Below the pieces are notes generated by a model. That model was not told where the DNA came from and made no database searches. It saw only the letters and a program-made list of their open reading frames with translations. Both the position numbers and the translations under genes were made by a program. Shown one piece after another: positions 41,977-62,483 of a stretch of 64,000 bases of DNA (its first letter is position 1; every line of letters begins with the position of its first letter). This DNA comes from an uncultured Planctomycetales bacterium (GTDB taxonomy: Bacteria; Omnitrophota; Gorgyraeia; Gygaellales; Profunditerraquicolaceae), in the NCBI GenBank assembly GCA_964579435.1, contig CAZOGI010000003.1:47321-111320 (forward strand), in the 5' to 3' direction.

Positions 41977-42276
41977 TTAACGGCTGTACACGGTGCGTAC
42001 GAGTGTTGCGCCTTCGGTTCGCTCCGCCAGAAGCATCGCCGGCGGTTTTTGTTTTGGTGCGCGAACTGTTGGCGCCGTTTCGACCGGTGCGCAGGGTTGC
42101 AGCGACGCCTCTGCCGGCGCGGTATCCTGACCCTGGCCTGTCAGCAGCGGGGCATTGACCCCCGGAATGGCCGGTATGGTACAGGAGGCCTGGATCGACA
42201 TGCTCTCCGCGGCAGCTGCAATCGCGCTGGAGCATATCACCAATGCAATCGTCAGAAGAATCCCTTTCCTGTTCAT
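41977..42276 (-). CDS. Small secreted protein (99 aa), hypothetical
   Basis: Strong RBS GGAGG before the internal Met; signal peptide MNRKGILLTIALVICSSAIAAAAE; 11 nt downstream of the RHH paralog on the minus strand. Confidence 0.35.
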   Translation of the reverse strand: MNRKGILLTIALVICSSAIAAAAESMSIQASCTIPAIPGVNAPLLTGQGQDTAPAEASLQPCAPVETAPTVRAPKQKPPAMLLAERTEGATLVRTVYSR

Positions 42277-42286
42277 AGCAGCCTCC

Positions 42287-42559
42287 TCAATTGTTCCCTT
42301 CCGTGGCTGGGGGGATTTTTTTCTCCGCAAGCTTCCTGAGCACATCCAAAAAACGAGATTCGAAGTCGGTTTCGCTCTTGATTCCCTCTCCGGAGAGCGG
42401 CATCTTTTTGGCCAGATGGATAAGCCAGGCGATGAGCTTGGCGCGGGAGACTTTCAGGCCGGTTGAAAAGAGCGCGTCCTTGCCGATCTTATCGAGAAAA
42501 TCGACTTCTTCCCGGTTCAAGAACGTCACGACTCTCTGGTTGCTGCCATCTCCGTTCAT
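42287..42559 (-). CDS. Small ribbon-helix-helix putative DNA-binding protein; paralog of 5490..5735
   Basis: VVTFLNREEVDFLDKIGKDALFSTGLKVSRAKLIAWL shares the FLDK[LI]GKDALFSTG block with the T2SS-cluster gene; RBS AAGGAG. Confidence 0.5.
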   Translation of the reverse strand: MNGDGSNQRVVTFLNREEVDFLDKIGKDALFSTGLKVSRAKLIAWLIHLAKKMPLSGEGIKSETDFESRFLDVLRKLAEKKIPPATEGNN

Positions 42560-42934: not shown

Positions 42935-45900
42935 TTATCCGAGTTCCACGTCAATGGCGTTGATCAGGCCCTGGCGCAGCTGGAGCGCATAGGGTGCCGG
43001 GATCGTATCCGCATCAATGACCACGGGTTTTGCGCCGGCTCCGGATAAGGTGATCGTGCGAACACGCACGCCGTTTTTCCCGAAGGTGTCTTTCATCTTC
43101 GGGTTGTGGTAGGTGATCCGGGTATTCTTTAGGAAATTGAACGAGTAATCCTTTTCTTTCGGCCTGAAAAGCCAGCGTGCCAGCGAAGGTTCCAGGACGA
43201 AGGAGAGCGCGCCGCGCTCGTCGATACGGAACGGCCGCTGTCCGATATTCATGAATAGCCAGATCTGGATGAACTCGGCGGTCGATCCGGAGAGCCGCGC
43301 CGCGTACCCGTTGCCGTGCAGTGACGGGTCGCTGAAGGCGCTGGAGACCAGGAAAGAAGAATTTTCCAGTACGTTACGCCCGTAACGCTCGGGAGGCTGA
43401 AAGCAGACGAGGCAATTCCTGAATTCCTCGTAAAAAGTTTCCGGGAGCCCCTGTTTGAGCAGCTCCAGAAGGTATTTGTACTCCATATGGAGCCAGATGG
43501 ATTCGTTTTCGAGCCAGCCCGGCGGGAAGGCCCGACAGCGGCCGATGTCCAGGGGCATGGGCTCCAGCGGCGCGGTTACTTTGTACATCTTGAGCGTGCG
43601 GTCAAAGAGCGGGCTTTTTCTCGTCGCCCGGTGGATCCTGAGGGCTTCGTCGCGGGAGCTGCAGGTGCGCAGCGCGTGAACCTGGGCTTCCAGGAAGAGC
43701 GGTAGGGGGATTGATTTGAATGCGAGCGCGCGCACGAACGGCGCTTTCGTTGTCTGGTAGCGTGTTACCTCGTTCATGAAGTACGAATGGTAGAGGCTGG
43801 TGCCTTTGCACCTGGCGCGTGCGATGCCGCGTTCGAGTTTCAGGAGCGCAGAAGAGATGATGTCCAGCAGCTCGTTTTTCGAGAGGAGCATGGTCTCTCC
43901 GCTGACCCCGAGGCGCGTCTTGTGCCGGTAATCCTCTTTCAGGGTGGCCGATGCGTCCCAGTACTGATAGAGGGACTCCGTCGAATCCGGGGCCGAGGAG
44001 CTCTGGCGCAGGAGCGGATCGAGGCCTTTCAGGAATTCCCCGACCTCACGGGTGAGGGGATGCGTATCGAAAGAGGAGTTCGCGAGCGCTTCCCTCAGGA
44101 AAACGGCGAGGCGTTTCAGCTCGAAGGTTTCGTTGAGAGAAGAACCGAAAAGGCCCGGGAGGCCGTTGAGCGCGTCGTACCAGTTCGGCTTTTCCGCTTC
44201 CATCTCGATGCCGATGCCGGAAGGATCGAGGCTGGCGATCTTGTTCGCGAGAAGGCAGCAGAGCTTGTCGAAGAGGCTCGTGCGGTAGATGTTCCCGTGG
44301 CCGTACTGCGTGCGCACTGCGTGAGGCAGCTCGGCGCGCTTACGGATCAGTTCCCGTTTGGTGCCGTCGCAGGCGAGGGAATGCAGCTGTTTGATCGTTC
44401 CCGTCGGCTCGTAAAAGAGGTATTTCTCGCGGCGCGGCTTGACGGTTTCGGTGTTGTCGAAATAAGTGAAGGTTCGATCTTCGAAGAGCAGATGGTGACG
44501 GTCTTCGGGAAAGATCCCCAGGTAGCTTTCGATGATGTCGAGGTTATACGTCCAGTGGTCGGTCCAGAACCCTTCCCCGTGCTCGGCGTCGCTGCAGTTG
44601 CCCGAGTGCTTCAGGATCACATCGAGGATGCGCTCACGGTCTTTTTGGCGCGCCGGCAGGTTTTCTTCGATAAAGTGGACGATCTCCCCGGGGGTAAAGG
44701 GGCGTTTCAGGAAAGCGATGAGGCGGCAAGATCCTTCCGTGCCCAGGAGGGTATCAAGGGCCTGCGCGGTTTTCGATTCATCGCGAAGGCTAAAGAGCGC
44801 GCCTTTGACGACCAGCGGGTTGTAGCCGTCGGTTTGCAGGAGGTTGATCAGCGTTTTGACGGTTGCGTCCTTGATCAGGGGGTTGAACCAGATGTCGCTG
44901 CGGCGGTTCTGGTTGACGTCGCGGTAATTGCCGTTGCCCTGCGAAAAATAAGTCGCCTGAATGCTGAATTTGTTGTAGTCACGCTCCAGGTCGCCGTGCT
45001 TGCGCGAGTAGAGGTAAAAGATATCGCCGGAGGAGAGGACCTGGGGATAGCCGCCGCGCAGGATATTGTCCAGGTAGGTCTGCTGCGCATAGCGGTCGAA
45101 TGCCGCGCTGCTTGAGCGGGTGAAGATATCCTTCTGCAGTCCGTCGATCAGGACGGTGTTGTCGTCTCTTTTCTGACGCAGGTAGCCTTTGGTGCGGATA
45201 CGGCGGACCGCCTTGTCCAGGGCTTCCTGGGTGCGCGCATAGCCGAACACGGCGCAGAAGGTTTTTCCCTCGCCGGGGGCGAGGCTATAGGTATGCAGGC
45301 TGAAGGCGCAGGGCGTCTTGCTGTCGGTGAGCTGGCGGGCCGGTACGCTGAAGGCCTGTTTCCGGGCGAAGCAGTGCGGATACCCGAAGTCGGTCCGCTC
45401 GCCGAAAATGAGCTGCGGGTCGACGATAACCTGCGCGACGCTGCCGGCTGCGGCATCTTCCGCAAACGGGAGATAAAAGTTGCCCTCTTTGATATGGATG
45501 ATCTCCGGCCGGTCCACGGGGTCGACATCGATCTTGTAGAAGGGGACGCGGCGTTTAAGGTTCTTGACGGTCATCCAGGCTTCGACCGTCCTGCCCAGTT
45601 TCTTGAGGAAGAGGTTACTGGTGCCGAAGGGCACGACCTGCGGCAGCCCGTCGAGCATCTGGATGCTGCGGGATGAGCGTTTGAGGTTGGTGACCTTCAC
45701 CATGCGCGCAAGGCCCGCAAACGGTTCATGGGGGATCGTGAAGTAGTCGACCGTGATGCGCAGGCCCAACCGCGGGTTCGTCTCCTCGACCTGCAGCTGC
45801 GCCGGCCGGATGACCATGCGGCTCGTGCATGCGCTGTCCGGCTCGTTGCGGAAAGGTTCGTAGATCTGCCGTTGGCCGCCGATGCGCAGGAACGTGCGGA

Positions 45901-46147
45901 AGCCCAGGCTCGAGGCGAATTGCCAGGCTTTGTTCGCCGGGAAGAATTCCATGAACGAGTGGTCTTTATCGCTGGTGCCGAAGCCGCAGATCCCCTGGCC
46001 GCGGTTCACGTAAAATACCCACATCGGAATGCCGAAGGTTCCGGCTATGCCGGGAAAGAAGTTCGCGAACGGCCGGGAGGAGAGGTAGTTATCGATAACG
46101 AAGGATCCGTCATTTTCAAGGGCGTAGCGCGGTGCGGTTTGCTTCAT
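42935..46147 (-). CDS. Large (~1070 aa) glycoside hydrolase/phosphorylase-like protein; resembles the cellobiose-phosphorylase (GH94) family, catalytic residues not checked
   Basis: Long single ORF; start at the internal Met with RBS GAGGAG (alternative upstream Met at 46210); no signal peptide; blocks such as NGNYRDVNQNRRSD and DHWTYNLDIIESYLG. Confidence 0.55.
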   Translation of the reverse strand: MKQTAPRYALENDGSFVIDNYLSSRPFANFFPGIAGTFGIPMWVFYVNRGQGICGFGTSDKDHSFMEFFPANKAWQFASSLGFRTFLRIGGQRQIYEPFRNEPDSACTSRMVIRPAQLQVEETNPRLGLRITVDYFTIPHEPFAGLARMVKVTNLKRSSRSIQMLDGLPQVVPFGTSNLFLKKLGRTVEAWMTVKNLKRRVPFYKIDVDPVDRPEIIHIKEGNFYLPFAEDAAAGSVAQVIVDPQLIFGERTDFGYPHCFARKQAFSVPARQLTDSKTPCAFSLHTYSLAPGEGKTFCAVFGYARTQEALDKAVRRIRTKGYLRQKRDDNTVLIDGLQKDIFTRSSSAAFDRYAQQTYLDNILRGGYPQVLSSGDIFYLYSRKHGDLERDYNKFSIQATYFSQGNGNYRDVNQNRRSDIWFNPLIKDATVKTLINLLQTDGYNPLVVKGALFSLRDESKTAQALDTLLGTEGSCRLIAFLKRPFTPGEIVHFIEENLPARQKDRERILDVILKHSGNCSDAEHGEGFWTDHWTYNLDIIESYLGIFPEDRHHLLFEDRTFTYFDNTETVKPRREKYLFYEPTGTIKQLHSLACDGTKRELIRKRAELPHAVRTQYGHGNIYRTSLFDKLCCLLANKIASLDPSGIGIEMEAEKPNWYDALNGLPGLFGSSLNETFELKRLAVFLREALANSSFDTHPLTREVGEFLKGLDPLLRQSSSAPDSTESLYQYWDASATLKEDYRHKTRLGVSGETMLLSKNELLDIISSALLKLERGIARARCKGTSLYHSYFMNEVTRYQTTKAPFVRALAFKSIPLPLFLEAQVHALRTCSSRDEALRIHRATRKSPLFDRTLKMYKVTAPLEPMPLDIGRCRAFPPGWLENESIWLHMEYKYLLELLKQGLPETFYEEFRNCLVCFQPPERYGRNVLENSSFLVSSAFSDPSLHGNGYAARLSGSTAEFIQIWLFMNIGQRPFRIDERGALSFVLEPSLARWLFRPKEKDYSFNFLKNTRITYHNPKMKDTFGKNGVRVRTITLSGAGAKPVVIDADTIPAPYALQLRQGLINAIDVELG

Positions 46148-46383
46148 GGAAACTCCTCGCGTAAAGGCATTTTGTCCGTTGCCGGGGAATACGCCCGGCG
46201 GCGTGGTCACTATTGTAGCGTTTCTGGTGGATTTGTAAATAGCTTTCTCATGCGGCGAGACGCCTCGCCGAGCGCTTCAGATTTTGCTTGCGGTCCGCTC
46301 ATTTCTTGGGTACTATGGATGGAAGATTTCTCCCGTCCCGAAGTTGCAGCGGCAGCCGTTTTAGCGCCGCAACCCTGTTCAGG

Positions 46384-47048: not shown

Positions 47049-47069
47049 CACCGATACGGACAGGTTTCC

Positions 47070-48509
47070 ATGGATATCACCCAGGCAACGGCTCATGAGC
47101 TCCTGAAGGAGCTTCGCCAAGGCTCAGTTTCGTGCGATGCGGTATACAAGGCGTTTTCCGAGCGCGCGCAGAAGGCGGATCCGCGTATCAATGCCTTTGT
47201 GCGCCGCAGCGGGCCTCTGGAGACGGCGTCTCCCGGGACAGGCCAGGGGAGTGGGCCGTTGCGGGGTTTGCCCATCGCCCTCAAAGACAACATTTGCACC
47301 CGGGGAGTGCGGACCGAATGCTGCTCGCGGATATTGAAAGGTTTTGTTCCTCCGTACGACGCCACGGTCGTGGAGCGACTCAAAGATGCCGGCGCCACGC
47401 TCGTCTCCACCAAGTTGAACATGGACGAGTTCGCGTTCGGTTCATCGACGGAGCATTCCCTTTTCGGCCCGACGCGCAACCCCTGGGATACGTCCCGCGT
47501 GCCCGGCGGTTCATCCGGCGGCTGCGCGGCTGCGGTCTCGGCGGGTGAAGCGCTTTGGGCGCTGGGTTCCGACACCGGAGGTTCGATCAGGCAGCCGGCT
47601 GCGTTCTGCGGGATCGTGGGGATGAAACCGACCTATGGCCGGGTTTCGCGTTACGGTCTCATCGCCTTTGCTTCAAGTCTCGACCAGATCGGTCCCCTGA
47701 CCAGGGATGTCGAGGATTGCGCGCTCCTCTTGTCGGTCATCTCCGGCTTTGACCCCAAAGACTCGACCTGCGCCGATGTCGCCGTGCCGGATTATTGCTC
47801 GGCACTGGGCAGGAACCTCAAGGGTCTGCGCGTCGGCATCCCGGCCGAATATTTCGTCTCTGGAATAGATGCGCAGGTAAAGCGCCTGGTTGAGGAGGCG
47901 ATCCGTCAGATCGAAAAACTCGGGGCGGAGATCGTCTCCGTGAGCCTGCCCCATACCCGGTATGCGGTGCCGGTCTATTACATCATCGCCACGGCGGAGG
48001 CCAGCTCGAATCTGGCGCGCTACGACGGCGTGCAGTACGGTGCCCGCAGCGCCGGGCCTTCGATCATCGATATGTACACGCGTACCCGCGCCGAAGGGTT
48101 CGGGGAGGAGGCGAAGCGCCGGATCCTCCTGGGTACCTTCGCACTCTCGCACGGCTATTACGACGCCTATTATTTGCGGGCGCTGAAAGTCCGCTCCCTG
48201 ATCCAGAGGGATTTCGAGCGGGCATTCGGCGCGTGTGATTGCCTGGTCACGCCCACCGCGCCGACCGCCGCTTTCGGCATCGGCGAAAAGGCGCAGGAAC
48301 CGCTGCAGATGTACCTGTCGGATATCTTCACGATATCAGGCAATCTTGCCGGCATTCCGGCGCTCTCGGTGCCGTGCGGGTTCACTGCAGAGCGGCTTCC
48401 GGTCGGGTTGCAGGTGATGGGCAAGGCGTTCGACGAAGAAACCCTGCTGCGCGTGGCGCACGCGTACGAGCAGAGCACTCCATGGCACAAGGAGCGGCCG
48501 CCGTGTTAA
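47070..48509 (+). CDS. gatA: Glutamyl-tRNA(Gln) amidotransferase subunit A
   Basis: Amidase signature GGSSGGCAAAVSAG...GSDTGGSIRQPAAFCGIVGMKPTYG. Confidence 0.95.
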   Translation: MDITQATAHELLKELRQGSVSCDAVYKAFSERAQKADPRINAFVRRSGPLETASPGTGQGSGPLRGLPIALKDNICTRGVRTECCSRILKGFVPPYDATVVERLKDAGATLVSTKLNMDEFAFGSSTEHSLFGPTRNPWDTSRVPGGSSGGCAAAVSAGEALWALGSDTGGSIRQPAAFCGIVGMKPTYGRVSRYGLIAFASSLDQIGPLTRDVEDCALLLSVISGFDPKDSTCADVAVPDYCSALGRNLKGLRVGIPAEYFVSGIDAQVKRLVEEAIRQIEKLGAEIVSVSLPHTRYAVPVYYIIATAEASSNLARYDGVQYGARSAGPSIIDMYTRTRAEGFGEEAKRRILLGTFALSHGYYDAYYLRALKVRSLIQRDFERAFGACDCLVTPTAPTAAFGIGEKAQEPLQMYLSDIFTISGNLAGIPALSVPCGFTAERLPVGLQVMGKAFDEETLLRVAHAYEQSTPWHKERPPC

Positions 48510-49954
48510 ACCCCGGTGTCTACGAGACGGTTATCGGTCTTGAGGTGCATGTACATCTCAAAACCAGGACGAAGGCTTTCTGCGGCTGTTCGACCGGGTT
48601 CGGCGCTGAGCCCAATACGCAGGTCTGCCCGGTGTGTCTGGGTTTTCCCGGCGTGTTGCCGGTGCTCAACCGGGAGGCCCTTGCCTTTGCGGCAAAGGTC
48701 GGGTTGGCGCTGCACTGCACGGTCCAGGAGTATACCCGTTTCGACCGCAAGCATTACTATTACCCCGATCTGCCGAAAAATTACCAGATCTCCCAGTTCG
48801 ATCATCCGGTCTCCAAAGACGGCTATCTCGATATCCCGTCCGACGCGGGGACTAAGCGGATCCGTATCAAACGGGCTCACCTGGAGGAGGACGCGGGTAA
48901 GCTGCTGCACCGCGCTGATCAGAGCCTCGTCGATCTCAACCGCGCCGGGATCGCGCTTTTGGAGATCGTGACCGAACCGGATCTGCGTTCTCCCGAGGAG
49001 GCGTACGAGTATCTGACGGGGCTCAAGGCGATCATTGAATATCTTGACGTGTCGGATTGCGATATGGAAAAAGGGTCGCTGCGCTGCGATGCCAATATTT
49101 CGGTGCGGCCCCGGGGGGCGCAGGAGCTGGGGACCAAGACCGAGTTGAAGAACATGAATTCCTTTCGCGGGGTGCGCGATGCCCTCGCCTACGAATCGGC
49201 GCGGCAGATCGAGCTGCTGGAGTCGGGCGGCGTCGTGGTCCAGGAGACGCGCCTTTGGGACGTCGCCGCCGGGCGCACGGCCGCGATGCGTACGAAAGAA
49301 GAGGCAAAGGATTACCGCTATTTTCCCGAGCCTGACCTGCCTCCGTTTCGCCTGAGCGCAGATTTCGTCGAACGCGTGCGCGCGGGGCTGCCTGAGTTGC
49401 CGGAACACAAACGCCTCCGGTTTATGGCCGAGTTCGGCATCCCTCACAAGGAGGCGTCGATCCTCGTTGCCTCCCGGCGCAGCGCCGAATTCGCCGAGTG
49501 CTGTATCCGGGAGTACGCGGCCGCAGATAAAAAGCCGCTGGTCAATTGGCTCCTGGGCCCGGTTCTCGCCGAGGCCAACCAGCGGGGGGTTGATATCGCG
49601 GGCCTGGAGCTTTCTGCGGGGCGGCTCCTTGAGTTGGTCGGTTGCGTCGAGTCCGGGCAGATTTCCCATCTTACCGCCAAGGGTGTCCTCTCCGAAATGC
49701 TGCAAACCGGCCGCGGGGCAGGGGAGATCGTGCGGGAGAAGGATCTTTCCCAGGTGTCGGATGCCGCCGCCCTGCAGGAGAGCGTCGAAGCGGTTATCCG
49801 CGAGCAAGGCAAGAGCGTGCTGGATTACCGCAGCGGCAAGTCCAATGCGCTCATGTTCCTGGTCGGCCAGGTCATGCGCAAATCCTCAGGCAAGGCTAAC
49901 CCTAAGCTTGTCCAGGAGATTTTACGAAAGAGGCTTGATGCAACGGCCTCGTGA
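48482..49954 (+). CDS. gatB: Asp/Glu-tRNA amidotransferase subunit B
   Basis: YETVIGLEVHVHLKT...CGCS N-terminus and GatB/YqeY C-terminal domain; start ATG 48482 or GTG 48503 overlapping the gatA end. Confidence 0.9.
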   Translation: MAQGAAAVLNPGVYETVIGLEVHVHLKTRTKAFCGCSTGFGAEPNTQVCPVCLGFPGVLPVLNREALAFAAKVGLALHCTVQEYTRFDRKHYYYPDLPKNYQISQFDHPVSKDGYLDIPSDAGTKRIRIKRAHLEEDAGKLLHRADQSLVDLNRAGIALLEIVTEPDLRSPEEAYEYLTGLKAIIEYLDVSDCDMEKGSLRCDANISVRPRGAQELGTKTELKNMNSFRGVRDALAYESARQIELLESGGVVVQETRLWDVAAGRTAAMRTKEEAKDYRYFPEPDLPPFRLSADFVERVRAGLPELPEHKRLRFMAEFGIPHKEASILVASRRSAEFAECCIREYAAADKKPLVNWLLGPVLAEANQRGVDIAGLELSAGRLLELVGCVESGQISHLTAKGVLSEMLQTGRGAGEIVREKDLSQVSDAAALQESVEAVIREQGKSVLDYRSGKSNALMFLVGQVMRKSSGKANPKLVQEILRKRLDATAS

Positions 49955-49978
49955 GAAACGGTTTTCCTAAAGAGGAGG

Positions 49979-51286
49979 ATGGCAATGGCTGGATCGAAGG
50001 TGCGCAGGATCATCACGCGTTTGAGCGTGGCGGCGGTCGCTGCCGGAACGCTCGGCGCGGCGACCGTTCTCTGGGCCGCCGATAAGAAAAAAGAAGATCT
50101 CTTCCGGCAGGTCGAGCTATTTTCCGTCGCGCTCTCGACGATCCAGGCCGAATACGTCGAAGATGTCTCGCCGAAGGATCTTATTTACGGGGCGCTCAAG
50201 GGTATGGTCTCCTCTCTGGATCCCCACAGCCAGTTCCTCGACCCCGATACCTATAATGAGTTGAAGGTCGACACCGAAGGCAAGTTCGGGGGGGTCGGTA
50301 TCGAGATCACCGTCAAAGACGGTTTGCTGACGGTCGTGACCCCGATCGAGGATACCCCCGCGTGGAATGCGGGGGTAAAGGCGGGCGACCGTATCGTCAA
50401 GATCAACAATGAGCTGACCCGGGATGTAACCCTCACCGACGCGGTCAAGAAACTCCGGGGGACCCCCGGGGAACCGGTCGTGATCACGGTCCTTCGTGAA
50501 GGGGAGAAGAAACTGATTGATATCAAGCTGGTCCGGGACGTGATCAAGATCAAAGATATCAAAGAGGCGCGCATCCTTGAGGATGGGATCGCCTATGTCC
50601 GGCTTGTCGAGTTCCGCGAGGGTACCGCCGCTGACCTGCGCAAGACCCTGGAGCGTCTCTCCCAGGAGGGGATGAAGTCCCTGGTTTTGGATCTGCGCAA
50701 CAACCCCGGCGGGCTCCTGGATTCGGCGGTCGGGGTTGCCGAGCTTTTTGTCGAGCGCGGCAAACAGATCGTTTCCATCCAGGGGAAGCGTAAAGACCAG
50801 AATCAGGCGTTCGCGGCGCGCGCGAAAAAGACGTACGAGGCGCTTGCGATGGTGGTGCTCGTGAACGAGGGGTCGGCTTCGGGCAGCGAGATCGTCGCCG
50901 GGTGTCTGCAGGATTACCGTCGCGCGATCGTCGTCGGAACCAAGTCGTTCGGAAAGGGATCGGTCCAGACCGTCATTCCCCTCGGGGACGGCTCGGCGTT
51001 GCGTCTGACCACCAGCAAGTATTTTACCCCCTCGGGAAAGGTTATCCACAATAAAGGCGTCATGCCGGATATCATCGCCGAAGAAGGGCGTATCCAGATG
51101 GCAGAGAAAGAGGAGGAGACCGATCCTTCAGCCGAGACGGTTTTCGAAACGATAGATGCTCAGAACGCCAAGCCGAAAGAGCAGGCTGCGCACGACCAGT
51201 TCGACTACCGTTCGGACAACCAGTTGATGCGCGCCATAGACGTGCTGAAGGCGCTTTCTTTTTTTAAGGGCAACGGCGTTTCATAA
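49979..51286 (+). CDS. C-terminal processing peptidase (S41 family, PDZ-containing)
   Basis: Signal/anchor, PDZ domain GIEITVKDGLLTVVTPIEDTPAWNAGVKAGDRIVKIN, S41 catalytic region LVNEGSASGSEIVAG...GTKSFGKGSVQ. Confidence 0.85.
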   Translation: MAMAGSKVRRIITRLSVAAVAAGTLGAATVLWAADKKKEDLFRQVELFSVALSTIQAEYVEDVSPKDLIYGALKGMVSSLDPHSQFLDPDTYNELKVDTEGKFGGVGIEITVKDGLLTVVTPIEDTPAWNAGVKAGDRIVKINNELTRDVTLTDAVKKLRGTPGEPVVITVLREGEKKLIDIKLVRDVIKIKDIKEARILEDGIAYVRLVEFREGTAADLRKTLERLSQEGMKSLVLDLRNNPGGLLDSAVGVAELFVERGKQIVSIQGKRKDQNQAFAARAKKTYEALAMVVLVNEGSASGSEIVAGCLQDYRRAIVVGTKSFGKGSVQTVIPLGDGSALRLTTSKYFTPSGKVIHNKGVMPDIIAEEGRIQMAEKEEETDPSAETVFETIDAQNAKPKEQAAHDQFDYRSDNQLMRAIDVLKALSFFKGNGVS

Positions 51287-51312
51287 CCGTTTGTCCCGTC
51301 AGGCAGGGGAAC

Positions 51313-52131
51313 GTGCGGCGCGACCCGGTTCGACCATATAGAGTCACGGTTATCGTCCTGGCAGGGATCGTGGTCCTGGAGACGTTCGTGTTGCTGGCGA
51401 CGCTGGGCCGCGGCCGTGTAGCCGCTCCCGTGCGTGCGCGACCCGGCGAGCCAGGGGAACCCCTGCGCGGCACGATCGCGCTGGTGTTGGATGATTGGGG
51501 ATACGACAAAGATTCGGTCCTGCAGCTTCGTTCCTGGGCGGGGGCGGTGACGCTGGCGGTTTTGCCGGACCAGCCGTATGCCGCGCAGGTCGCCACCCAG
51601 GCCCACCGGTTTGGCTGCGAGGTGATCGTGCATCTGCCCTGCGAGCCTCACGAAGCACATGCCCTGGAGCCCAACACCGTCAAGGTGTCCATGAAACAGA
51701 GGCAGGTGGAACGGATCCTGAGGGAGGCGCTGCAGCGGGTCCCGTTCGCCGTCGGGATATCCAATCACATGGGTTCGCGGGTAACCGAGAACAGGAAGAC
51801 GATGGGATGGATTTTCGCTTTTCTGAAAGAACGGCGGCTCTTCTTCCTGGACAGTTTCGTCACCCACGCCAGCGTCTGCGAAAGGATCGCGCAGGAACAA
51901 GGCGTGGTTTTTGCCCGCCGCGACATCTTTTTGGATAACAACGAGGACCCTTGCGCGATCAGGGCACAGCTGGAGAAGCTCAAACGAAAAGCCGAAGCCA
52001 AGGGTTTTGCCGTCGGCATCGGCCATAACCGTCCCGCGACCCTGGCGGTGCTGGAGCGGGAAGTGCCTCGCCTGCGCCGGGAGGGTTTTCGTTTCGTGCG
52101 TCTGAGCGAAGGATTGAAGATCGTCCCGTAA
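51313..52131 (+). CDS. Divergent polysaccharide deacetylase family protein (YibQ-like)
   Basis: N-terminal TM, IALVLDDWGYD, HLPCEP, ISNHMGSR blocks typical of the divergent PDA/YibQ family. Confidence 0.7.
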   Translation: MRRDPVRPYRVTVIVLAGIVVLETFVLLATLGRGRVAAPVRARPGEPGEPLRGTIALVLDDWGYDKDSVLQLRSWAGAVTLAVLPDQPYAAQVATQAHRFGCEVIVHLPCEPHEAHALEPNTVKVSMKQRQVERILREALQRVPFAVGISNHMGSRVTENRKTMGWIFAFLKERRLFFLDSFVTHASVCERIAQEQGVVFARRDIFLDNNEDPCAIRAQLEKLKRKAEAKGFAVGIGHNRPATLAVLEREVPRLRREGFRFVRLSEGLKIVP

Positions 52132-52149
52132 GAACGGAGAGCCTGGTCT

Positions 52150-53154
52150 ATGTTGACCTTGGGGATAGAGACGTCTTGCGACGAAACAGCCGCGGCTGTC
52201 GTTGCCAACGGCACGAGGGTCTGTTCGAGTGTCGTTTCCTCGAGCGTCTCTTTTCATGCCAAATACGGGGGCATCGTCCCCGAGATCGCCTTCCGCAGAC
52301 AGGCGGAGACGATCGTTGCGGTCTGCGCAGAGGCGTTGGCCCAGGTCAGGCAATGCCCGGGCCGGCTCGAAGCGGTCTGCGTGACGAGCCATCCGGGCCT
52401 GGCAGGCTCGCTCCTGGTCGGCGGTCTCTTCGCGGAGGCGTTCGCTTTCGCGCGGAAATTGCCGCTGATTGCAGTCGATCACCTGCGCGGGCATATCTAC
52501 GCGCCGTTTTTAAGCGAAAAGGTCCCCTTGCCGGCTGTGGCGTTGGTCGTCTCGGGCGGCCACACGAGTCTCTACCGGGTGCGTACGCTGCTGCAGATCG
52601 AGCCGCTCGGACATACCCGGGACGACGCCTGCGGCGAGGCATTCGACAAGGTCGCCAAGCTCTTGGGTTTGGGGTATCCCGGCGGGCCGGCGATCGAACG
52701 CCAGGCACGCCGAGGTGATCCGGAGGCGTTTCGGTTTTCCTGCTCCGGGACGAGCACGCCGTTCGATTTCAGCTTCAGCGGCATCAAGACCGCGGTTTTG
52801 CATACGGTCCTGCGCCGTCTCGGTCTTGCGGTGCAGGCAGGGTTGCCCGGGCCGAATGACCTGCGGCGGTTGCCCCGGCGGACCGTGAGCGATATCTGCG
52901 CTTCGTTCCAGCATGCGCTGGTGGGCGTGCTTATGCAGAAGGCGTTCGGTGCCTGCGCGGCAAAGCGGACCCCCCGTTTGCTCGTATCCGGGGGAGTGGC
53001 GGTTAACGGGTACCTTCGCCGTTCTTTTCTGCAGGAGGCAAAGAAACAAGGCATCCGGGTTTTTTTCCCCGAACCGCGCTATTGCACCGATAATGCGGCG
53101 ATGATTGCCGGCTACGGTTTTCATCTGGCGCGCACGAAACGCGACCGCCCCTAA
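52150..53154 (+). CDS. tsaD: tRNA N6-adenosine threonylcarbamoyltransferase TsaD
   Basis: MLTLGIETSCDETAAAV...HLRGH metal-binding motif; Kae1/TsaD family. Confidence 0.9.
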   Translation: MLTLGIETSCDETAAAVVANGTRVCSSVVSSSVSFHAKYGGIVPEIAFRRQAETIVAVCAEALAQVRQCPGRLEAVCVTSHPGLAGSLLVGGLFAEAFAFARKLPLIAVDHLRGHIYAPFLSEKVPLPAVALVVSGGHTSLYRVRTLLQIEPLGHTRDDACGEAFDKVAKLLGLGYPGGPAIERQARRGDPEAFRFSCSGTSTPFDFSFSGIKTAVLHTVLRRLGLAVQAGLPGPNDLRRLPRRTVSDICASFQHALVGVLMQKAFGACAAKRTPRLLVSGGVAVNGYLRRSFLQEAKKQGIRVFFPEPRYCTDNAAMIAGYGFHLARTKRDRP

Positions 53155-53168
53155 CAAAAGGAGGGAGT

Positions 53169-53645
53169 GTGCTGACCGATCTTCAGGTGATGGAGCGTCT
53201 GCTGCTGGCGGTGCTGCTCAGCGGTTTGATCGGGGTCGAGCGTGAAGTCCACCGCCGGACCGCGGGGCTACGGACCCATATCCTGGTGTGTCTGGGGTCC
53301 TGCCTTATCATGTTGACATCGCTGTATGTTTTTGATATATATATCAAATTAGTGCCGCTTGATCCTTCCCGCATCGCCTCGGGGGTCATCACCGGGATCG
53401 GTTTTCTCGGGGCCGGATCGATCATTCGCGCCCAAGAGCGGGTTACGGGGTTGACGACCGCTGCCAGCCTGTGGGTGGTTGCGGGCATCGGGTTGGCCCT
53501 CGGGTGCGGTTTCGTGCGGGCAGCGCTTTTTACGACCGCACTGGCGCTGGGGGTGCTGTTTTTTCTGCGCCGGGTCGAAGGTAGGTTGGTTTCTCGCTGG
53601 GTAAAAGGGGGAGGCGCCCATGGCTCTCGTGAAGAGGAAGACTGA
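53169..53645 (+). CDS. MgtC/SapB-family membrane protein
   Basis: ERLLLAVLLSGLIGVEREVHRRTAGLRTHILVCLGS is the MgtC N-terminal signature; GTG start after GGAGGGAG. Confidence 0.7.
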   Translation: MLTDLQVMERLLLAVLLSGLIGVEREVHRRTAGLRTHILVCLGSCLIMLTSLYVFDIYIKLVPLDPSRIASGVITGIGFLGAGSIIRAQERVTGLTTAASLWVVAGIGLALGCGFVRAALFTTALALGVLFFLRRVEGRLVSRWVKGGGAHGSREEED

Positions 53646-54126
53646 AGAGAAGATCCTTGACGTCGATGCGGCGATGCAGGGGACGCTGACGTTCAAGGAT
53701 CCGGTTAATCTGCGCATCAACGGAAAGTTCGAAGGAAACCTCGAGACGAAGGGTAACCTGACGATCGGCCAGACCGCGCAGGTGGCGGGGGATATCTTCG
53801 GGGATAACGTGATCATCGGCGGTCGGGTCAAGGGCAAAGTCACCGCGCGCCAACTGCTGACGCTTTTGCCGACGGCAATCGTCGAAGGCGATATCTTCCC
53901 GGTCAAGCTCAACGTCGCGGACGGGGCTATCCTGGAAGGCCGCTGCAGCATGCTGCACGATTTTCTCAATTCCGAGGAGCTCTCGCGCTACCTGGAGGTA
54001 GACGCGCGTTCCATCCGGGAATGGGCCCATTCCGGGAAGATCCCTGCAGTTGCTGACGGGGACGACTGGAAATTCGAGCGCAAGGCCGTCGATGCCTGGG
54101 TTGCCTCGGGGGAGATCCGCGCTTAA
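53620..54126 (+). CDS. Bactofilin-domain protein fused to a C-terminal excisionase/MerR-type helix-turn-helix (HTH_17-like) domain
   Basis: Bactofilin beta-helix repeats (INGKFEGNLETKGNLTIGQTAQVAGDIFGDNVIIGGRVKGKV..VEGDI..ADGAILEGR) then LNSEELSRYLEVDARSIREWAHSGKIPA..WKFERKAVDAWV. Confidence 0.55.
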   Translation: MALVKRKTEEKILDVDAAMQGTLTFKDPVNLRINGKFEGNLETKGNLTIGQTAQVAGDIFGDNVIIGGRVKGKVTARQLLTLLPTAIVEGDIFPVKLNVADGAILEGRCSMLHDFLNSEELSRYLEVDARSIREWAHSGKIPAVADGDDWKFERKAVDAWVASGEIRA

Positions 54127-54182
54127 AAAGCGCCGCGTTCGTCTGAGGGCGCGTCGCCGCAGAAGCCAGGAGCATACTGTTT

Positions 54183-54491
54183 ATGACCGACGAAAAGCTG
54201 TTGACCATACGGGAAGTTTCCCTTTCGCTGAACATATCCGAACGCCAGGTAATCGAGCTGGCGGAGAGCGGGACCGTTCCCGCCTACAAGATCGGCGGAG
54301 TGTACCTGCGTTTCAAGCGCCAGGAGGTGGAGGAGTACCGCAAGAAACTCGCGCAGCACCCCCATGCGGCTGCGCGCCCCAGCCCCGTTTCCTTCGGAGA
54401 ACGTCTGCGGGACTTTTTTTATTTCAACGATTTCTATATCTTCTCGGGGATCGTCATCGTTTCCATGCTCTACATCATTTTCCGTGGCTAA
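54183..54491 (+). CDS. Excisionase/MerR-type HTH domain protein with C-terminal transmembrane anchor
   Basis: LLTIREVSLSLNISERQVIELAESGTVPAYKIGGVYLRFKRQEVEEY (HTH_17-like) then the hydrophobic tail FYFNDFYIFSGIVIVSMLYIIF. Confidence 0.5.
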   Translation: MTDEKLLTIREVSLSLNISERQVIELAESGTVPAYKIGGVYLRFKRQEVEEYRKKLAQHPHAAARPSPVSFGERLRDFFYFNDFYIFSGIVIVSMLYIIFRG

Positions 54492-55188
54492 GCGCGTCCC
54501 TGGCGACTCCGGGTTTCTCGATCTTGGGTGCGCCCGGATCGATACCGGCCGCCGTGTCCGGCGCGGCTATCCGGAGGCGGTTTTCTGCCCCGGAAAGACG
54601 AGGCAGGCGCTCAGGACGATCACCGCCTCGTTCTTCAAGAGCAGAGAGACGCTGCTGTTGACGAAGCTGGACCCTGCTGCGTACCGTTGGCTGCGCGCCT
54701 CGTTCCCTACCCTGCGCTACCACAAGGAGGCGCGGCTGGGATACCGCGTTTTCTCGCCCAGGAAGCCTCAGGGTCTCGTTGCGGTGGTTACGGGCGGGAC
54801 CGCCGATATAGCGGTGGCCGAGGAAGCGGCGACGACCCTCTCGGTCATGGGAAACCGGGTTAGGCGCCTCTACGACGTCGGGGTTGCCGGGGTGCATCGT
54901 CTCTTCTCGTCCCTGGATGTCCTGCGTCAGGCGCGGGTCATCGTCGTCGTCGCGGGGATGGAAGGAGCTCTGGCCAGCGTCGTCAGCGGGCTGGTCTCCT
55001 GCGCCGTCGTGGCGGTGCCGACCAGCTGCGGATACGGCGCCCACTTCGGGGGGATCGCCCCGCTGCTGACGATGCTCAACAGCTGTTCGCCGGGCGTGGC
55101 AGTGGTCAATATCGACAACGGATTCGGGGCGGGGTATCTGGCTTCGCTCATCAATAATCCGCGGGAACGCGTTGCAGTAAAAGACTAA
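54484..55188 (+). CDS. larB: Nickel-pincer cofactor biosynthesis protein LarB (PurE-like carboxylase/hydrolase)
   Basis: GTG 54484 overlapping the upstream stop; N-terminal LarB region (DLGCARIDTGRRVRRGYPEAVFCPGKT), PurE-like core VAVVTGGTADIAVAEEA...VIVVVAGMEGALASVV. Confidence 0.7.
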   Translation: MAKRVPGDSGFLDLGCARIDTGRRVRRGYPEAVFCPGKTRQALRTITASFFKSRETLLLTKLDPAAYRWLRASFPTLRYHKEARLGYRVFSPRKPQGLVAVVTGGTADIAVAEEAATTLSVMGNRVRRLYDVGVAGVHRLFSSLDVLRQARVIVVVAGMEGALASVVSGLVSCAVVAVPTSCGYGAHFGGIAPLLTMLNSCSPGVAVVNIDNGFGAGYLASLINNPRERVAVKD

Positions 55189-55200
55189 GGAGGGTTCATC

Positions 55201-56523
55201 GTGGCGCTTTCGGGTCTGGATATCTATAAGCTGTTGCCTAAAACGAATTGCCGCGATTGCGGTTTTCCGACCTGCCTGGCGTTCGCTATGGCCCTGGCGA
55301 AGAAGTCCGTTGCACTGCAGAAGTGTCCGCACTTGAGCGCCCAGGCTCAGGAGACGCTGGAGGCATCGAGCCAGCCGCCGATACGGCTGGTCAGCGTGGG
55401 GGACCGGTTCCGGGCGGGTAACGAAACGGTACTTTTCCGTCACGAAGAGAAATTCCATAATCCCTGCGGGATCGGTTTTGTGATCGACGATACCGATCCT
55501 GCCGCGCGCGTGCAGGAGGCGCTGGCGGCCGTATCTTCGTTTGTCTTCGAGCGCGTCGGCCAGACCTTAAGCGCAGACCTCATCGCGCTGCGGCAGCGCT
55601 CAAGCGCGGCTGCGTTCGTGCAACTGGTCGAAGCTGCGGCGAAGAAGTCGGCGCTGGGCCTGGTCTTGATGAGCAGCGACGTCGCTGCGGTGCGCGCGAG
55701 CCTGTCCGCTCTGAAAGGCAGAAAGCCGCTCCTTTTCCCCGGGGAAGACGCGGACCGCGCGGCCTTCTGTGCTCTCGCCAAAGAATTTTCGGTCCCGCTG
55801 GTGGTGTCCGCCGGGGATCTGGCGAAGCTTGAGGAACGCAGCATCGAGGCGGCAAAGGCGGGGGTGGGCGATCTGATGCTTTATCCGGGCCGCAAAGATC
55901 CCGCGCAAACGCTCTGGGACTTGACCCAGATCAGGCGGCAGGCGCTCAAGAAATCGAACCGCGCGCTCGGCTATCCGGTCATCGCCGTGGTTGAGGCGGA
56001 CGATCCTTTCGCGGAGGTCGCCGAGGCCGCCGCTTACATCGCCAAATATGCCGGCATGGTGCTTGTCAGGGGGACGCAGCCCTGGCAGGCGCTCTCGCTG
56101 CTGACGGTACGCCAGAACATCTACACCGATCCGCAGAAACCGCTGCAGATCGAGGCGAAGCTGTATCCGGTCGGCGCGGTTAGCGCGTCTTCGCCGCTTC
56201 TGATCACCACCAATTTTTCGCTCAGTTACTACACGGTGCTGGGTGAAGTCGAAGCAAGCAAGGTCCCTTCCTATATCCTCAGCGTCGATACCGAGGGGAT
56301 GTCGGTCTTGACCGCCTGGGCGGCGGAAAAGTTCAACGCCGAGACCATCACCGCTTCCCTGAAGGCGCAGAATGCCGAGGCTGCCGTCAGCCGCCGGCGG
56401 GTCGTTATCCCCGGCTATGTCGCGGTCATGAGCGGAGACCTGCAGGAGCAGTCCGGTTGGGAAGTCCTCGTCGGCCCGAAAGAGGCAGCCGGCCTGCCGG
56501 CTTTCCTGAAAAACCTTTCCTAA
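55201..56523 (+). CDS. acsC: Corrinoid iron-sulfur protein large subunit (acetyl-CoA decarbonylase/synthase gamma subunit, AcsC/CdhE)
   Basis: N-terminal 4Fe-4S cluster motif LPKTNCRDCGFPTCLAFAMALA, TIM-barrel and C-terminal B12-binding domain; 440 aa. Confidence 0.8.
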   Translation: MALSGLDIYKLLPKTNCRDCGFPTCLAFAMALAKKSVALQKCPHLSAQAQETLEASSQPPIRLVSVGDRFRAGNETVLFRHEEKFHNPCGIGFVIDDTDPAARVQEALAAVSSFVFERVGQTLSADLIALRQRSSAAAFVQLVEAAAKKSALGLVLMSSDVAAVRASLSALKGRKPLLFPGEDADRAAFCALAKEFSVPLVVSAGDLAKLEERSIEAAKAGVGDLMLYPGRKDPAQTLWDLTQIRRQALKKSNRALGYPVIAVVEADDPFAEVAEAAAYIAKYAGMVLVRGTQPWQALSLLTVRQNIYTDPQKPLQIEAKLYPVGAVSASSPLLITTNFSLSYYTVLGEVEASKVPSYILSVDTEGMSVLTAWAAEKFNAETITASLKAQNAEAAVSRRRVVIPGYVAVMSGDLQEQSGWEVLVGPKEAAGLPAFLKNLS

Positions 56524-56551
56524 GAAGAAGGCGGTGGGGCCCTGTGCCCGC

Positions 56552-58486
56552 ATGAGCACCTGTACGGTCCATTTCCTTCCCGATAACAAAAAGATATCTG
56601 TTGAGCGCGAGACGACGCTGTTGTCGGCCGCTCTCTCCGCTGGGCTCTACATTAATTCCAGTTGCGGCGGGGAAGGGGTGTGCGGCCGTTGCAAGGTTAT
56701 CGTGCGCAGCGGGCCGGTATCGGCGCACGCAACCGGCGCGCTCTCCCCGAAAGAACGTTCCGGCGGAATGGTCCTTGCCTGCGCCACGACGGTGCTCGGC
56801 GATTGCCTGATCGAGATCCCCCCCGAGTCGCGTCTTTCCCTGGATGGACTGACTCAGGAAGAGATACGCAAAAGGCTCGGTTCGGTCTTTACCGCTCCGG
56901 AAGACGTTGAGACCGCCGCGTGGCGGCCGGGAGCGCCTTTTGCGCTGGAACCGCTGGTCCAGAAACGATTCGTGCGTTTGCCCGAACCGAACCTGAACGA
57001 CAGGGTGAGCGATCTGGAGCGCCTGGAGAGGGAGCTTGCCCGTGAACTGAGCTCTCCGATCGCTTACGCGCCCCTGGCAACCCTGAAATCCCTGGGAGAG
57101 CTGCTGCGCAAGAGCGATTGGCAGGTTACCGCGGCGGTGGGGCGGGACGGGGCATTCGCGGAGTTGGTGACGGTCGAACCCGCAGACACCTCCCCGCGCA
57201 ATAAAGGAGTCTGTTTCGATATCGGCACGACGACCGTTACCGCGCAGCTGGTCGACCTGACCAAGGGGACGGTTCTGGGGACCAAGGCTACGTACAACAA
57301 ACAGGCCGCGTTCGGCAGCGATGTGATCACCCGTATCATCTATGCCAAAGACGCCGACGGGTTGCAGGTACTGCATCGCGCGGTCGTCGAGGACATGAAC
57401 GAGATGGTGCGAACGTTGGCGCACGAGCAAGGGGTGGACTTGAACGATATCACGGCCGCGGTCTGCGCCGGGAATACGACGATGACGCACCTGCTCCTGC
57501 GGGTCGATCCCACCTACATCAGGCGGGAGCCGTATGTGCCTACTTTTAACGCGGTGTCCTTGCTGCGTTCTTCGGAGATAGAGCTGCGCATCAATCCGCG
57601 CGGATTGGTTGCGTTCATCCCGGGAGTCGCCAGTTATGTCGGCGGCGATATCGTTGCCGGGATACTTTCCAGCCGACTGTACGAGCAGGAAGGGCTCTCG
57701 GCGCTTATCGATATCGGCACCAACGGGGAAATCGCCATCGGCAACCGGGAGTTCATCATCTCTGCCGCTGCTTCGGCGGGGCCGGCGTTCGAGGGCAGCG
57801 GTGTCTCCTGCGGCATGCGCGCGGGAAACGGCGCCATACAGCGTGTGGCCTTTAGCGCAAAAGCCGAACGGCCGCAGGTGGAGTGCATCGGGCAGGGGGC
57901 TCCCAGCGGCATATGCGGCTCCGGGTATATCTCGCTCATCTCGCAGATGCTGCGCAGCGGTTTTCTGGATAAGGACGGAAAGATCTGTCCGCATCCCGGC
58001 GGCAGGGTGCGGGAACGCGACGGGATAAAAGAATTCGTCGTCCTTTTCGAAGGGGAAGAGGGGGCGGTTCGGGATGTCGTGATCACCGAAGCCGACATCG
58101 AGAACCTGAAGCGCGCCAAGGCGGCCATCTATGCCGCGACCGCATCCCTGCTGAAGCATCTGGGGGTTGGCGCCGCTTCGTTGCAGCGGCTTTTCATCGC
58201 CGGGGGATTCGGGACGTTCCTCGATGTCGAAGAGGCGGTCAGGATTGGTCTTTTGCCCGATATCGAGCGCTCGCGCATTGTCTTTATCGGTAACAGCTCT
58301 CTTGCCGGCGCGCGCGAGGTTCTCCTTTCGCAGAAAGCCCTGGGGCTTTCCCGCGAGCTGGCCCGCCGGACGACGTATGTGGAGCTTTCGGTCGAGCGGG
58401 GGTATATGGACGAATACATGGCCGCGCTCTTTTTCCCGCACACGGATTTGGATCTTTTTCCCAGCTTCTACGGGGCGCGCTCATGA
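56552..58486 (+). CDS. Reductive activator of corrinoid Fe-S protein (RACo-like: plant-type 2Fe-2S ferredoxin domain plus ASKHA ATPase domain)
   Basis: N-terminal ferredoxin CGGEGVCGRCKV...LAC; central and C-terminal ASKHA-fold motifs (DIGTTTV, IDIGTNGEIA, ASYVGGDIVAG); start at internal ATG 56552 (ORF opens at 56534). Confidence 0.75.
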   Translation: MSTCTVHFLPDNKKISVERETTLLSAALSAGLYINSSCGGEGVCGRCKVIVRSGPVSAHATGALSPKERSGGMVLACATTVLGDCLIEIPPESRLSLDGLTQEEIRKRLGSVFTAPEDVETAAWRPGAPFALEPLVQKRFVRLPEPNLNDRVSDLERLERELARELSSPIAYAPLATLKSLGELLRKSDWQVTAAVGRDGAFAELVTVEPADTSPRNKGVCFDIGTTTVTAQLVDLTKGTVLGTKATYNKQAAFGSDVITRIIYAKDADGLQVLHRAVVEDMNEMVRTLAHEQGVDLNDITAAVCAGNTTMTHLLLRVDPTYIRREPYVPTFNAVSLLRSSEIELRINPRGLVAFIPGVASYVGGDIVAGILSSRLYEQEGLSALIDIGTNGEIAIGNREFIISAAASAGPAFEGSGVSCGMRAGNGAIQRVAFSAKAERPQVECIGQGAPSGICGSGYISLISQMLRSGFLDKDGKICPHPGGRVRERDGIKEFVVLFEGEEGAVRDVVITEADIENLKRAKAAIYAATASLLKHLGVGAASLQRLFIAGGFGTFLDVEEAVRIGLLPDIERSRIVFIGNSSLAGAREVLLSQKALGLSRELARRTTYVELSVERGYMDEYMAALFFPHTDLDLFPSFYGARS

Positions 58487-62409: not shown

Positions 62410-62483
62410 GGCGGCGTAGCTCAGTCTGATAGAGCACTCGGCTCATACCCGATCGGTCAGTGGTTTAAATCCACTCGCCGCCA
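62410..62483 (+). tRNA. tRNA with CAU anticodon (Met or Ile2), 74 nt, no encoded CCA
   Basis: Acceptor GGCGGCG/CGCCGCC, D arm GCTC..GAGC, anticodon loop CTCATAC, T loop TTTAAAT. Confidence 0.8.

Follow-up and report, generated by a model that had tools for sequence, protein, structure and literature searches.

The window analysed here comprises 64,000 nucleotides of contig CAZOGI010000003.1 (assembly GCA_964579435.1, positions 47,321 to 111,320), from an uncultured Planctomycetales bacterium placed by GTDB in the Omnitrophota. It carries two neighbouring open reading frames (ORFs) on the forward strand that are the subject of this report. The first encodes a bactofilin joined, within one polypeptide, to a C-terminal winged helix-turn-helix (HTH) domain, while the second, hereafter the partner, encodes a winged HTH of the same type followed by a C-terminal membrane helix. 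An earlier reading of the nucleotide sequence by itself (the original prediction) had located both ORFs and had quoted from the first the peptides INGKFEGNL, IGQTAQ...GKV, VEGDI and ADGAILEGR. The coordinates and strand were borne out, and the peptides were recovered at residues 33-41, 49-74, 88-92 and 100-108, respectively. The domains that it had proposed, namely a bactofilin and an excisionase/MerR-type HTH in the fusion and an HTH_17-like domain with a C-terminal transmembrane helix in the partner, were likewise confirmed by the family and structure comparisons described below. The features of the pair are as follows.

53610..53614, forward strand: Shine-Dalgarno-like GGAGG, 5 nucleotides 5' of the fusion-gene ATG (seen in the sequence)
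53620..54126, forward strand: bactofilin-winged-helix fusion gene, 168 residues plus stop, ATG start
53620..53652, forward strand: N-terminal tail of the fusion, residues 1-11, MALVKRKTEEK, net charge +2 (alignment, AlphaFold2 confidence)
53653..53946, forward strand: bactofilin (DUF583) beta-helix core, residues 12-109 (PF04519; 2n3d by sequence and fold)
53947..53961, forward strand: short linker, residues 110-114 (alignment)
53962..54108, forward strand: C-terminal MerR/excisionase-type winged HTH of the fusion, residues 115-163 (PF12728, TIGR01764, model, Foldseek)
54183..54491, forward strand: partner gene, winged HTH plus C-terminal membrane helix, 102 residues plus stop
54198..54356, forward strand: partner winged HTH, residues 6-58 (PF12728, model, Foldseek, hhalign)
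54357..54392, forward strand: variable linker of the partner, residues 59-70, predicted disordered (pairwise identity 0.18)
54411..54440, forward strand: juxtamembrane aromatic motif DFFYFNDFYI of the partner, residues 77-86 (pairwise identity 0.82)
54429..54485, forward strand: predicted membrane helix of the partner, residues 83-101, followed only by R-G (AlphaFold2)

The N-terminal half of the fusion was matched by the Pfam bactofilin family PF04519 over residues 12-109 (E-value 8.9e-25; 87.2 bits against a cut-off of 27.9), and as the match takes in positions 2-97 of the 98 in the profile, the whole domain is present. Sequence searches related this core to BacA of C. crescentus (2n3d; phmmer E-value 3.4e-10) and to the T. 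thermophilus bactofilin (6ria; E-value 8e-6). The AlphaFold2 model had a mean predicted local distance difference test score (pLDDT) of 84.6, rising to 88-96 in the beta-helix, and a predicted template modelling score (pTM) of 0.64. When searched with Foldseek, it superimposed on 2n3d with a template modelling (TM) score of 0.84 and a root-mean-square deviation of 2.1 Å, and on 6rib with a TM score of 0.78. Left-handed helices of the carbonic-anhydrase type appeared only as noise in both the sequence and the Foldseek searches. The PF04519 match, together with the agreement with 2n3d in sequence and fold, thus identifies a true bactofilin rather than a generic hexapeptide-repeat helix. Every testable feature of sequence and fold agrees with this assignment, which we hold with high confidence, and filament formation is predicted from it.

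Residue counts, here and below, cover 81 fusion and 79 partner family members. At position 105, aligned with BacA F130, which we take to be critical for polymerisation, the fusions are hydrophobic throughout (L in 43, F in 35 and M in 3 of the 81). The N-terminal tail, unstructured over residues 1-9 (pLDDT below 50), reads MALVKRKTEEK in the window and MAFKKKxEEK in the family consensus; in divergent fusions, too, a Lys/Arg cluster comes after one to three initial hydrophobic residues. The window and consensus sequences are similar to the published bactofilin membrane-targeting consensus MFSKKKK, in which the hydrophobic residues insert into the bilayer and the lysines bind head groups (PMC12448750).

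The C-terminal domain of the fusion belongs to PF12728 (HTH_17; residues 115-163, E-value 2.1e-10, 41.2 bits against a cut-off of 27) and to the excisionase family TIGR01764 of NCBIfam ('excise'; 38.3 bits against 28.8). Its modelled topology is beta-alpha-alpha-beta-beta-alpha, and the closest solved folds are BldC (6ama), RdfS (8dgl), RacA (5i44) and the Pukovnik Xis (4j2n), which Foldseek matched to both winged helices of the pair with probability 1.0 and TM scores of 0.64-0.85. A profile built from 21 diverse members of the fusion HTH found RacA, a 'chromosome-anchoring protein', as its top sequence match in the PDB (E-value 4e-4), followed by BldC and Xis. The nearest solved structures to the two domains (BldC, RdfS, RacA, Xis and pSK1 Par) are those of multi-copy DNA-architectural proteins.

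Between the last beta-strand and the winged helix, the main family has a linker of about 5 residues, and divergent lineages carry an additional 6-15 residues at exactly this point. Such variation suggests a flexibly tethered winged helix that leaves the polymerisation face open rather than capped, and the pTM of 0.64 is consistent with the two domains having no fixed orientation to each other. The canonical bactofilins (BacA, 2n3d; T. thermophilus, 6ria/6rib) share with the fusion the DUF583 beta-helix core, the hydrophobic-then-basic N-terminal tail and a hydrophobic residue at the F130 position. They differ in their C-terminal tail, which here is a folded winged HTH on a linker of 5-20 residues, and in that the gene here is paired with that of a tail-anchored HTH protein. 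We conclude with high confidence that in the fusion a folded winged helix replaces the usual disordered C-terminal tail of bactofilins.

The partner was matched by the same two families (PF12728, residues 6-55, E-value 1.2e-9, 38.7 bits against 27; TIGR01764, 36.5 bits against 28.8). Its model comprises a winged helix of beta-alpha-alpha-beta-beta-alpha topology over residues 6-58, a disordered segment at 59-70 (pLDDT about 58) and two helices at 71-81 and 83-101 (pLDDT 83-96), the winged helix having BldC (TM score 0.79-0.85), RacA, Xis and the centromere-binding domain of pSK1 Par as fold neighbours. The partner has 932 homologues of about 100 residues. Conservation along the protein is uneven in its family, with a pairwise identity of 0.66 in the winged helix, 0.18 in the linker, 0.82 in DFFYFNDFYI and 0.38 in the membrane helix. 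The motif straddles the beginning of the membrane helix and hardly varies in the family alignment, and related motifs occur at four divergent loci (L081, L083, L087 and L088, described below). In the winged helix, R43 never varies (79 of 79), K36 and K45 are likewise conserved, and helix 2 has an acidic character (E20, E25, E28). All 79 family members end in a hydrophobic C-terminus; as only one to three residues follow the membrane helix across the family, the partner would be tail-anchored and lack an external sensor domain. Membrane-anchored one-component regulators of the ToxR/CadC type carry a cytoplasmic DNA-binding domain of the OmpR type on a single membrane helix. The partner shares with them the single-helix tether of a DNA-binding-type domain, and differs in having no periplasmic sensor, a MerR/excisionase rather than an OmpR fold, and an invariant aromatic juxtamembrane motif. 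BLASTP returned no alignment between the winged helices of the fusion and the partner, and profile-profile comparison with hhalign related them with a probability of 98.3%, by which measure the two domains are paralogues.

Homologues of the fusion number at least 2,264 in a large protein database, and nearly all are labelled Omnitrophota or PVC; these labels are those of the record titles, and the restriction to Omnitrophota/PVC holds only for members with named sources. Typical names are 'polymer-forming cytoskeletal protein' or 'excisionase family DNA binding protein', with 'Candidatus Omnitrophota/Omnitrophica' as the source. The best 120 are 166-173 residues long, 71-80% identical to the window protein and without exception matched by both PF04519 and PF12728. 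An exhaustive search of cluster representatives returned 21 below an E-value of 1e-30, about 20 of them full-length fusions of 168-192 residues at 40-52% identity, and the named ones were again Omnitrophota or 'PVC group'. Both domains lie within one ORF in every homologue seen, and the N-terminus aligns residue-for-residue with those of homologues; a start-site error that would place the two domains in different ORFs, which the original prediction had named as a refuting outcome, is thereby ruled out. The architecture that it had put forward for a database search is no oddity of one contig; it recurs across the phylum.

Among contigs drawn from one genome per species, 148 encode a relative of the fusion, and 80 of these were fetched (L001-L080). 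They derive from metagenome-assembled or single-amplified genomes (MAGs or SAGs) of Omnitrophota, a few bearing the labels 'uncultured Planctomycetales' or 'Pacebacteria' and showing the same gene order. That order is nearly invariant: ctpA, a divergent polysaccharide deacetylase gene, tsaD, mgtC, fusion, partner, larB, cdhD and RACo. The partner begins no more than 250 nucleotides 3' of the fusion at all 77 loci with enough sequence, with a median gap of about 10 nucleotides. Identity of the fusion to the window protein ranges from 67 to 78% across the 80 species genomes, and its median of 72% exceeds those of MgtC (70%), CtpA (61%), LarB (59%), CdhD (57%), the partner (52%) and TsaD (50%), making the fusion the most conserved gene of its row.

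Six divergent lineages, at 40-50% identity and with different surroundings, were also compared for gene order:

L081: BatD, TPR, MgtC, fusion, partner, PDZ, PolA
L083: fusion, partner, GreA, ACPS
L085: SPOR, TPR/PDZ, fusion, partner
L087: tsaD, mgtC, fusion, partner, polA
L088: response regulator/kinase, fusion, partner, chorismate-binding enzyme
L089: fusion, then a 118-residue multi-pass membrane protein without HTH (3202..3558, forward strand)

Five of the six encode, directly 3' of the fusion, an HTH_17 protein of 94-119 residues with a C-terminal hydrophobic helix. The sixth, L089, lacks such a protein and, as a naturally occurring variant, could reveal the contribution of the partner. 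The pairing suspected in the original prediction is therefore that of a conserved module, and fusion and partner form this module independently of their neighbourhood. Purifying selection on it is strong, and we are highly confident that it is a two-gene module specific to the Omnitrophota. Scans of the 64-kb window with family hidden Markov models detected no bactofilin or HTH_17 ORF besides these two. NCBIfam holds no dedicated model for the fusion, and full-text literature searches, in keeping with the earlier impression that no such module had been described, returned no paper describing a bactofilin-HTH fusion or dealing with Omnitrophota bactofilins. A large bioinformatic survey of bactofilin N-termini mentions transmembrane variants, and a term search of that paper for additional or other domains gave nothing. 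Neither a curated family nor a published description was thus found for the pair.

Several known systems offer points of comparison. In the RacA-DivIVA system of B. subtilis sporulation, a MerR-like winged helix is likewise joined to a membrane-associated polymeric scaffold, and RacA is a top fold match for both winged helices of the module. However, RacA reaches DivIVA non-covalently through a coiled coil, whereas the domain described here is part of the scaffold protein itself, a bactofilin; moreover, the base-contacting K15 and R19 of RacA are replaced in the fusion by N/S and E/D. In the BacNOP-PadC-ParB/ParA system of M. xanthus (PMC5703909), a bactofilin polymer also organises chromosomal DNA-protein complexes. 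Contact with DNA is indirect there, through the ParB-like adaptor PadC and ParB-parS, while the present module has no ParB-like domain and carries a putative DNA-binding domain within the bactofilin itself. BacR (YhbD, DUF4004) is an HTH protein genetically linked to the bactofilins BacE and BacF and bound by them at the membrane. BacR stands alone as a soluble protein of about 25 kDa and alternates between membrane and nucleoid; as one HTH of the present module is fused and the other membrane-anchored, no such relocation switch is apparent here. Finally, BldC, Xis and RdfS likewise have an HTH_17-type fold and lack the coiled coil of MerR (Foldseek TM scores 0.74-0.85). They assemble cooperatively, head-to-tail, on DNA, and winged helices arrayed along a polymer could imitate that geometry. 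These are free proteins of 50-90 residues with basic recognition helices and wings, however, and their key Arg is acidic here.

The reading that we favour, tentatively, is that a membrane-bound polymer and its tail-anchored partner tether DNA multivalently to the membrane. The bactofilin would polymerise on the inner face of the cytoplasmic membrane and would display a regular, multivalent array of winged helices. In work on the T. thermophilus filament (PDB 6rib), subunits reportedly meet head-to-head and tail-to-tail. As bactofilin filaments are non-polar (PMC12448750), the C-terminal domains of the fusion would meet pairwise at the tail-to-tail junctions, that is, at every second one. The partner would add further winged helices at the same membrane surface, and the resulting tether to the nucleoid would be of low sequence specificity, relying chiefly on the conserved basic wings and not on recognition helices that read bases. 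Such an assembly would be a functional analogue of RacA-DivIVA in B. subtilis or of BacNOP-PadC-ParB in M. xanthus, compressed to one polymer and one anchor. By analogy with the nearest solved HTH relatives, RacA, BldC and Xis, chromosome anchoring is plausible. Possible, if on the unlikely side, is the fuller proposal that in the Omnitrophota, some of which are ultra-small cells, a nucleotide-independent cytoskeletal polymer binds DNA directly and, with its partner, pins and organises the nucleoid at the membrane as a minimal 'kinetochore-like' apparatus of two small proteins that dispenses with ParB-type adaptors.

The residues through which relatives of this fold contact DNA permit a closer assessment. 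In BldC, K26 and R30 read bases, T27, T29, K33 and W31 contact phosphates, and H46, R47 and R48 dock the wing; R30A and H46E each abolish DNA binding (PMC5859096). In RacA, the base-reading residues K15 and R19 are completely conserved (PMC4914108). Transferring these positions through tool-made alignments gave the following counts (fusion, n = 81; partner, n = 79).

BldC R30 (RacA R19): fusion E 73, D 8 (E134 in the window); partner D 61, E 8, N 7
BldC K26 (RacA K15): fusion N 45, S 22; partner K 72, R 6
BldC T27: fusion S 77; partner E 45, D 31
BldC W31: fusion W 80; partner L 77
BldC K33: fusion N 70; partner E 73
BldC K36: fusion K 76, R 5; partner variable (A 20, T 16, V 13)
BldC R40: fusion K 76, R 4; partner K 74, R 5
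BldC H46: fusion D 42, N 12, E 9; partner Y 73, F 6
BldC R48: fusion K 61, R 19; partner R 79
BldC R50: fusion E 77, D 4; partner K 75, R 4

At positions facing the DNA backbone or within the wing, S131, W135, K140, K145 and K151 of the fusion are each kept in at least 77 of the 81 sequences, and K21, K36, R43 (79 of 79) and K45 are kept in the partner. As judged from these alignments, basic residues persist in the wings, and acidic ones occupy the recognition helices at the positions through which BldC and RacA read bases. Neither HTH has the full set of basic base-contacting residues; only the partner keeps the K26 equivalent as Lys or Arg (78 of 79). The pattern is still compatible with DNA binding, the Pukovnik Xis having Asn at the position of the base-reading Arg. 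At the divergent locus L088 (4001..4960, forward strand, 'PVC group bacterium'), the recognition helix of the partner is strongly basic (SHRNFKKMVRQKK) and its domain has a net charge of +9, against a partner median of 0; the helix of the corresponding fusion reads PKTLNQW, near the PKTVTRW of BldC. From its sequence, L088 may represent a more canonical, ancestral DNA-binding state of the module.

Several of these observations, together with others, weigh against a DNA tether. The base-reading Arg (BldC R30, RacA R19) is acidic in all 81 fusions and Asp, Glu or Asn in 76 of the 79 partners; the equivalents of K26 and K33 in the fusion are mostly N/S and N, respectively, and that of K33 is E in 73 of the 79 partners; and the equivalent of H46 in the fusion is mostly D, N or E. 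In every lineage, the winged helix of the fusion carries a net negative charge, with a median of -3 in the main family and values of -2 to -6 in the divergent lineages. MerR-like folds that bind protein rather than DNA exist, and one of them, CbpM (3ucs), is among the structural matches from Foldseek. No DNA target, operator or repeat was identified, and the neighbouring genes (tsaD, larB, cdhD and others) offer no functional hint. Given the acidic residue at the R30/R19 position and the net acidic fusion HTH, DNA binding cannot be assumed from the fold. Net charge alone is weak evidence, however, since the RacA winged helix, in a hand count over the region aligned with the fusion-HTH profile, is itself at about net -1 yet binds DNA; position-specific residues weigh more.

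The main rival explanation, possible if on the unlikely side, is that the winged helices have lost DNA binding and instead dock each other or other proteins. The polymer would then cluster or position the tail-anchored partner as a 'client', possibly with the MgtC-like protein encoded upstream, and would serve envelope growth, cell shape or division, as do BacA-PbpC or CcmA-Csd5/7, with no involvement of DNA. The acidic residue at the R30/R19 position in every fusion and most partners, the acidic helix 2 of the partner, the invariably net acidic winged helix of the fusion and the precedent of CbpM all point this way, as does the fact that two paralogous domains are encoded side by side in all lineages except one. 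Bactofilins typically recruit bitopic membrane proteins through cytoplasmic juxtamembrane segments (PMC12448750; PMC13649987), and the partner carries an invariant motif, DFFYFNDFYI, in just such a position. One could speculate that the acidic residue at fusion position 134 pairs with the invariant R43 of the partner. Against docking alone, nearly all characterised members of this winged-helix fold family bind DNA, the Lys/Arg residues of the wings and the Trp and Ser of helix 2 are conserved, the basic partner helix and the PKTLNQW of L088 resemble a working DNA binder, and RacA shows that a slightly acidic winged helix can bind DNA.

We consider improbable a regulatory switch in which one or both winged helices are transcription factors whose access to DNA depends on polymerisation or on sequestration at the membrane, with the state of the envelope as one conceivable signal. 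Its model is BacR of B. subtilis, an HTH protein that shares an operon with two bactofilins; these bind BacR, draw it to the membrane and prevent it from binding DNA (PMC13649987). An HTH of the MerR/excisionase class is covalently or genetically linked to a bactofilin here also. However, the partner is permanently anchored and lacks a sensor domain, the HTH of the fusion is a fixed part of the polymer subunit, the genes lie in a long, co-directional housekeeping row with no operator-like repeat nearby, and an identity of about 72% across the phylum is a level more usual for structural proteins than for regulators. To a component of a mobile element or defence system (an excisionase, a recombination directionality factor or a MADS1-like protein), or to an annotation or assembly artefact, we give next to no credence, even though TIGR01764 carries the name 'excisionase family' and weak matches to the antiphage HTH model MADS1 (NF047737) were obtained at about 33 bits. 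The latter (33.3 and 33.6 bits) fall well below the cut-off of 80, in a housekeeping context rather than a defence island; the housekeeping order is conserved in 80 species, with no integrase or mobile-element genes among the neighbours examined; and a single two-domain ORF recurring in thousands of independent assemblies cannot be an artefact of joining two genes.

Assignments to better-characterised families were also rejected. Against the BldC family (NF033787), fusion and partner scored 18.4 and 15 bits, with a cut-off of 77. The RacA family agrees in fold and in the weak profile match (E-value 4e-4), but K15 and R19 are not conserved, no coiled coil is present and the domain lies C-terminal to a beta-helix. 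Classical MerR regulators are represented by sub-threshold scores only (MerR_1 12.8 bits, MerR_2 14.3 bits), and neither model contains a coiled coil or effector domain.

Immediately upstream of the fusion lies the gene of a membrane protein:

53169..53645, forward strand: MgtC-family membrane protein, 158 residues (PF02308, E-value 1.8e-40)

Its 3' end overlaps the start of the fusion gene by 26 nucleotides in the window, and such overlap is frequent. An mgtC gene lies directly 5' of the fusion at 68 of 72 related loci and in the divergent L081 (4535..4972) and L087 (3526..3975), encoding in each case a short protein of 145-158 residues that consists of the membrane domain only. MgtC is thus a common yet dispensable upstream neighbour, and the MgtC-like protein may be a third component of the module. 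The row to which these genes belong spans 47049..58486 on the forward strand, with gatA and gatB ahead of ctpA and with cdhD encoding the delta subunit of carbon monoxide dehydrogenase/acetyl-CoA synthase (CODH/ACS). Over positions 51000-56000, a promoter scan returned one promoter-like site, on the other strand, as many as in shuffled sequences, and a terminator scan returned 13 terminator-like sites against 6.1 +/- 2.9 in shuffles, mostly within genes. These scans gave no dedicated transcription unit and no operator or conserved operator-like repeat for the pair. The longest ORF for LarB, which functions in nickel-pincer cofactor biosynthesis (NF033503, E-value 1.9e-82), runs from 54364 to 55188 on the forward strand and so starts within the partner gene. 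As its homology begins only at about residues 45-59, the true start probably lies near 54500-54540, and the overlap would be an artefact of ORF calling.

The remainder of the window has several features of its own. Its GC content is 59.6%, compared with values of about 38-42 carried in the names of several related MAGs, which may denote GC content. Three aptamers of the c-di-GMP-I riboswitch class score above the gathering threshold:

5225..5310, forward strand: c-di-GMP-I-class aptamer, 58.9 bits
35050..35152, forward strand: c-di-GMP-I-class aptamer, 49.6 bits
42669..42755, reverse strand: c-di-GMP-I-class aptamer, GGC variant (RF03167), 66.9 bits

The ORFs 3' of two of these (35200..35541 and 35577..37187, forward; 41980..42453, reverse) match no Pfam family. 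Adjoining the GGC variant is an open frame of 1,113 residues (42938..46276, reverse) with no Pfam match at an E-value of 0.001 or below; it is a putative gene, long spurious frames being common at this GC content. An ORF of 687 residues (7712..9772, forward) combines Secretin_N and Secretin domains (E-value 5.9e-46) with a C-terminal TonB_C-like domain (E-value 2e-5), an unusual combination. The window also encodes a class A RNase P RNA (23365..23723, forward, 167 bits) and three forward-strand tRNAs: tRNA-Met(CAT) at 21752..21825, tRNA-Val(CAC) at 22111..22187 and a second tRNA-Met(CAT) at 62410..62483.

Bactofilins are scaffolds whose variable tails recruit clients, and they reach DNA through adaptors such as PadC and ParB. 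The present module is phylum-wide, highly conserved and compact, consisting of two small proteins of 168 and 102 residues. An identity of 67-78% across 80 genomes, together with the constant pairing with a membrane-anchored paralogous domain, suggests that the fusion has an important role in this major, scarcely cultured lineage. If its winged helices bind DNA, the fusion would be the first cytoskeletal polymer of the bactofilin class to tether DNA directly to the membrane; if they do not, the module would clearly exemplify the conversion of a MerR/Xis fold to protein docking on a polymer.

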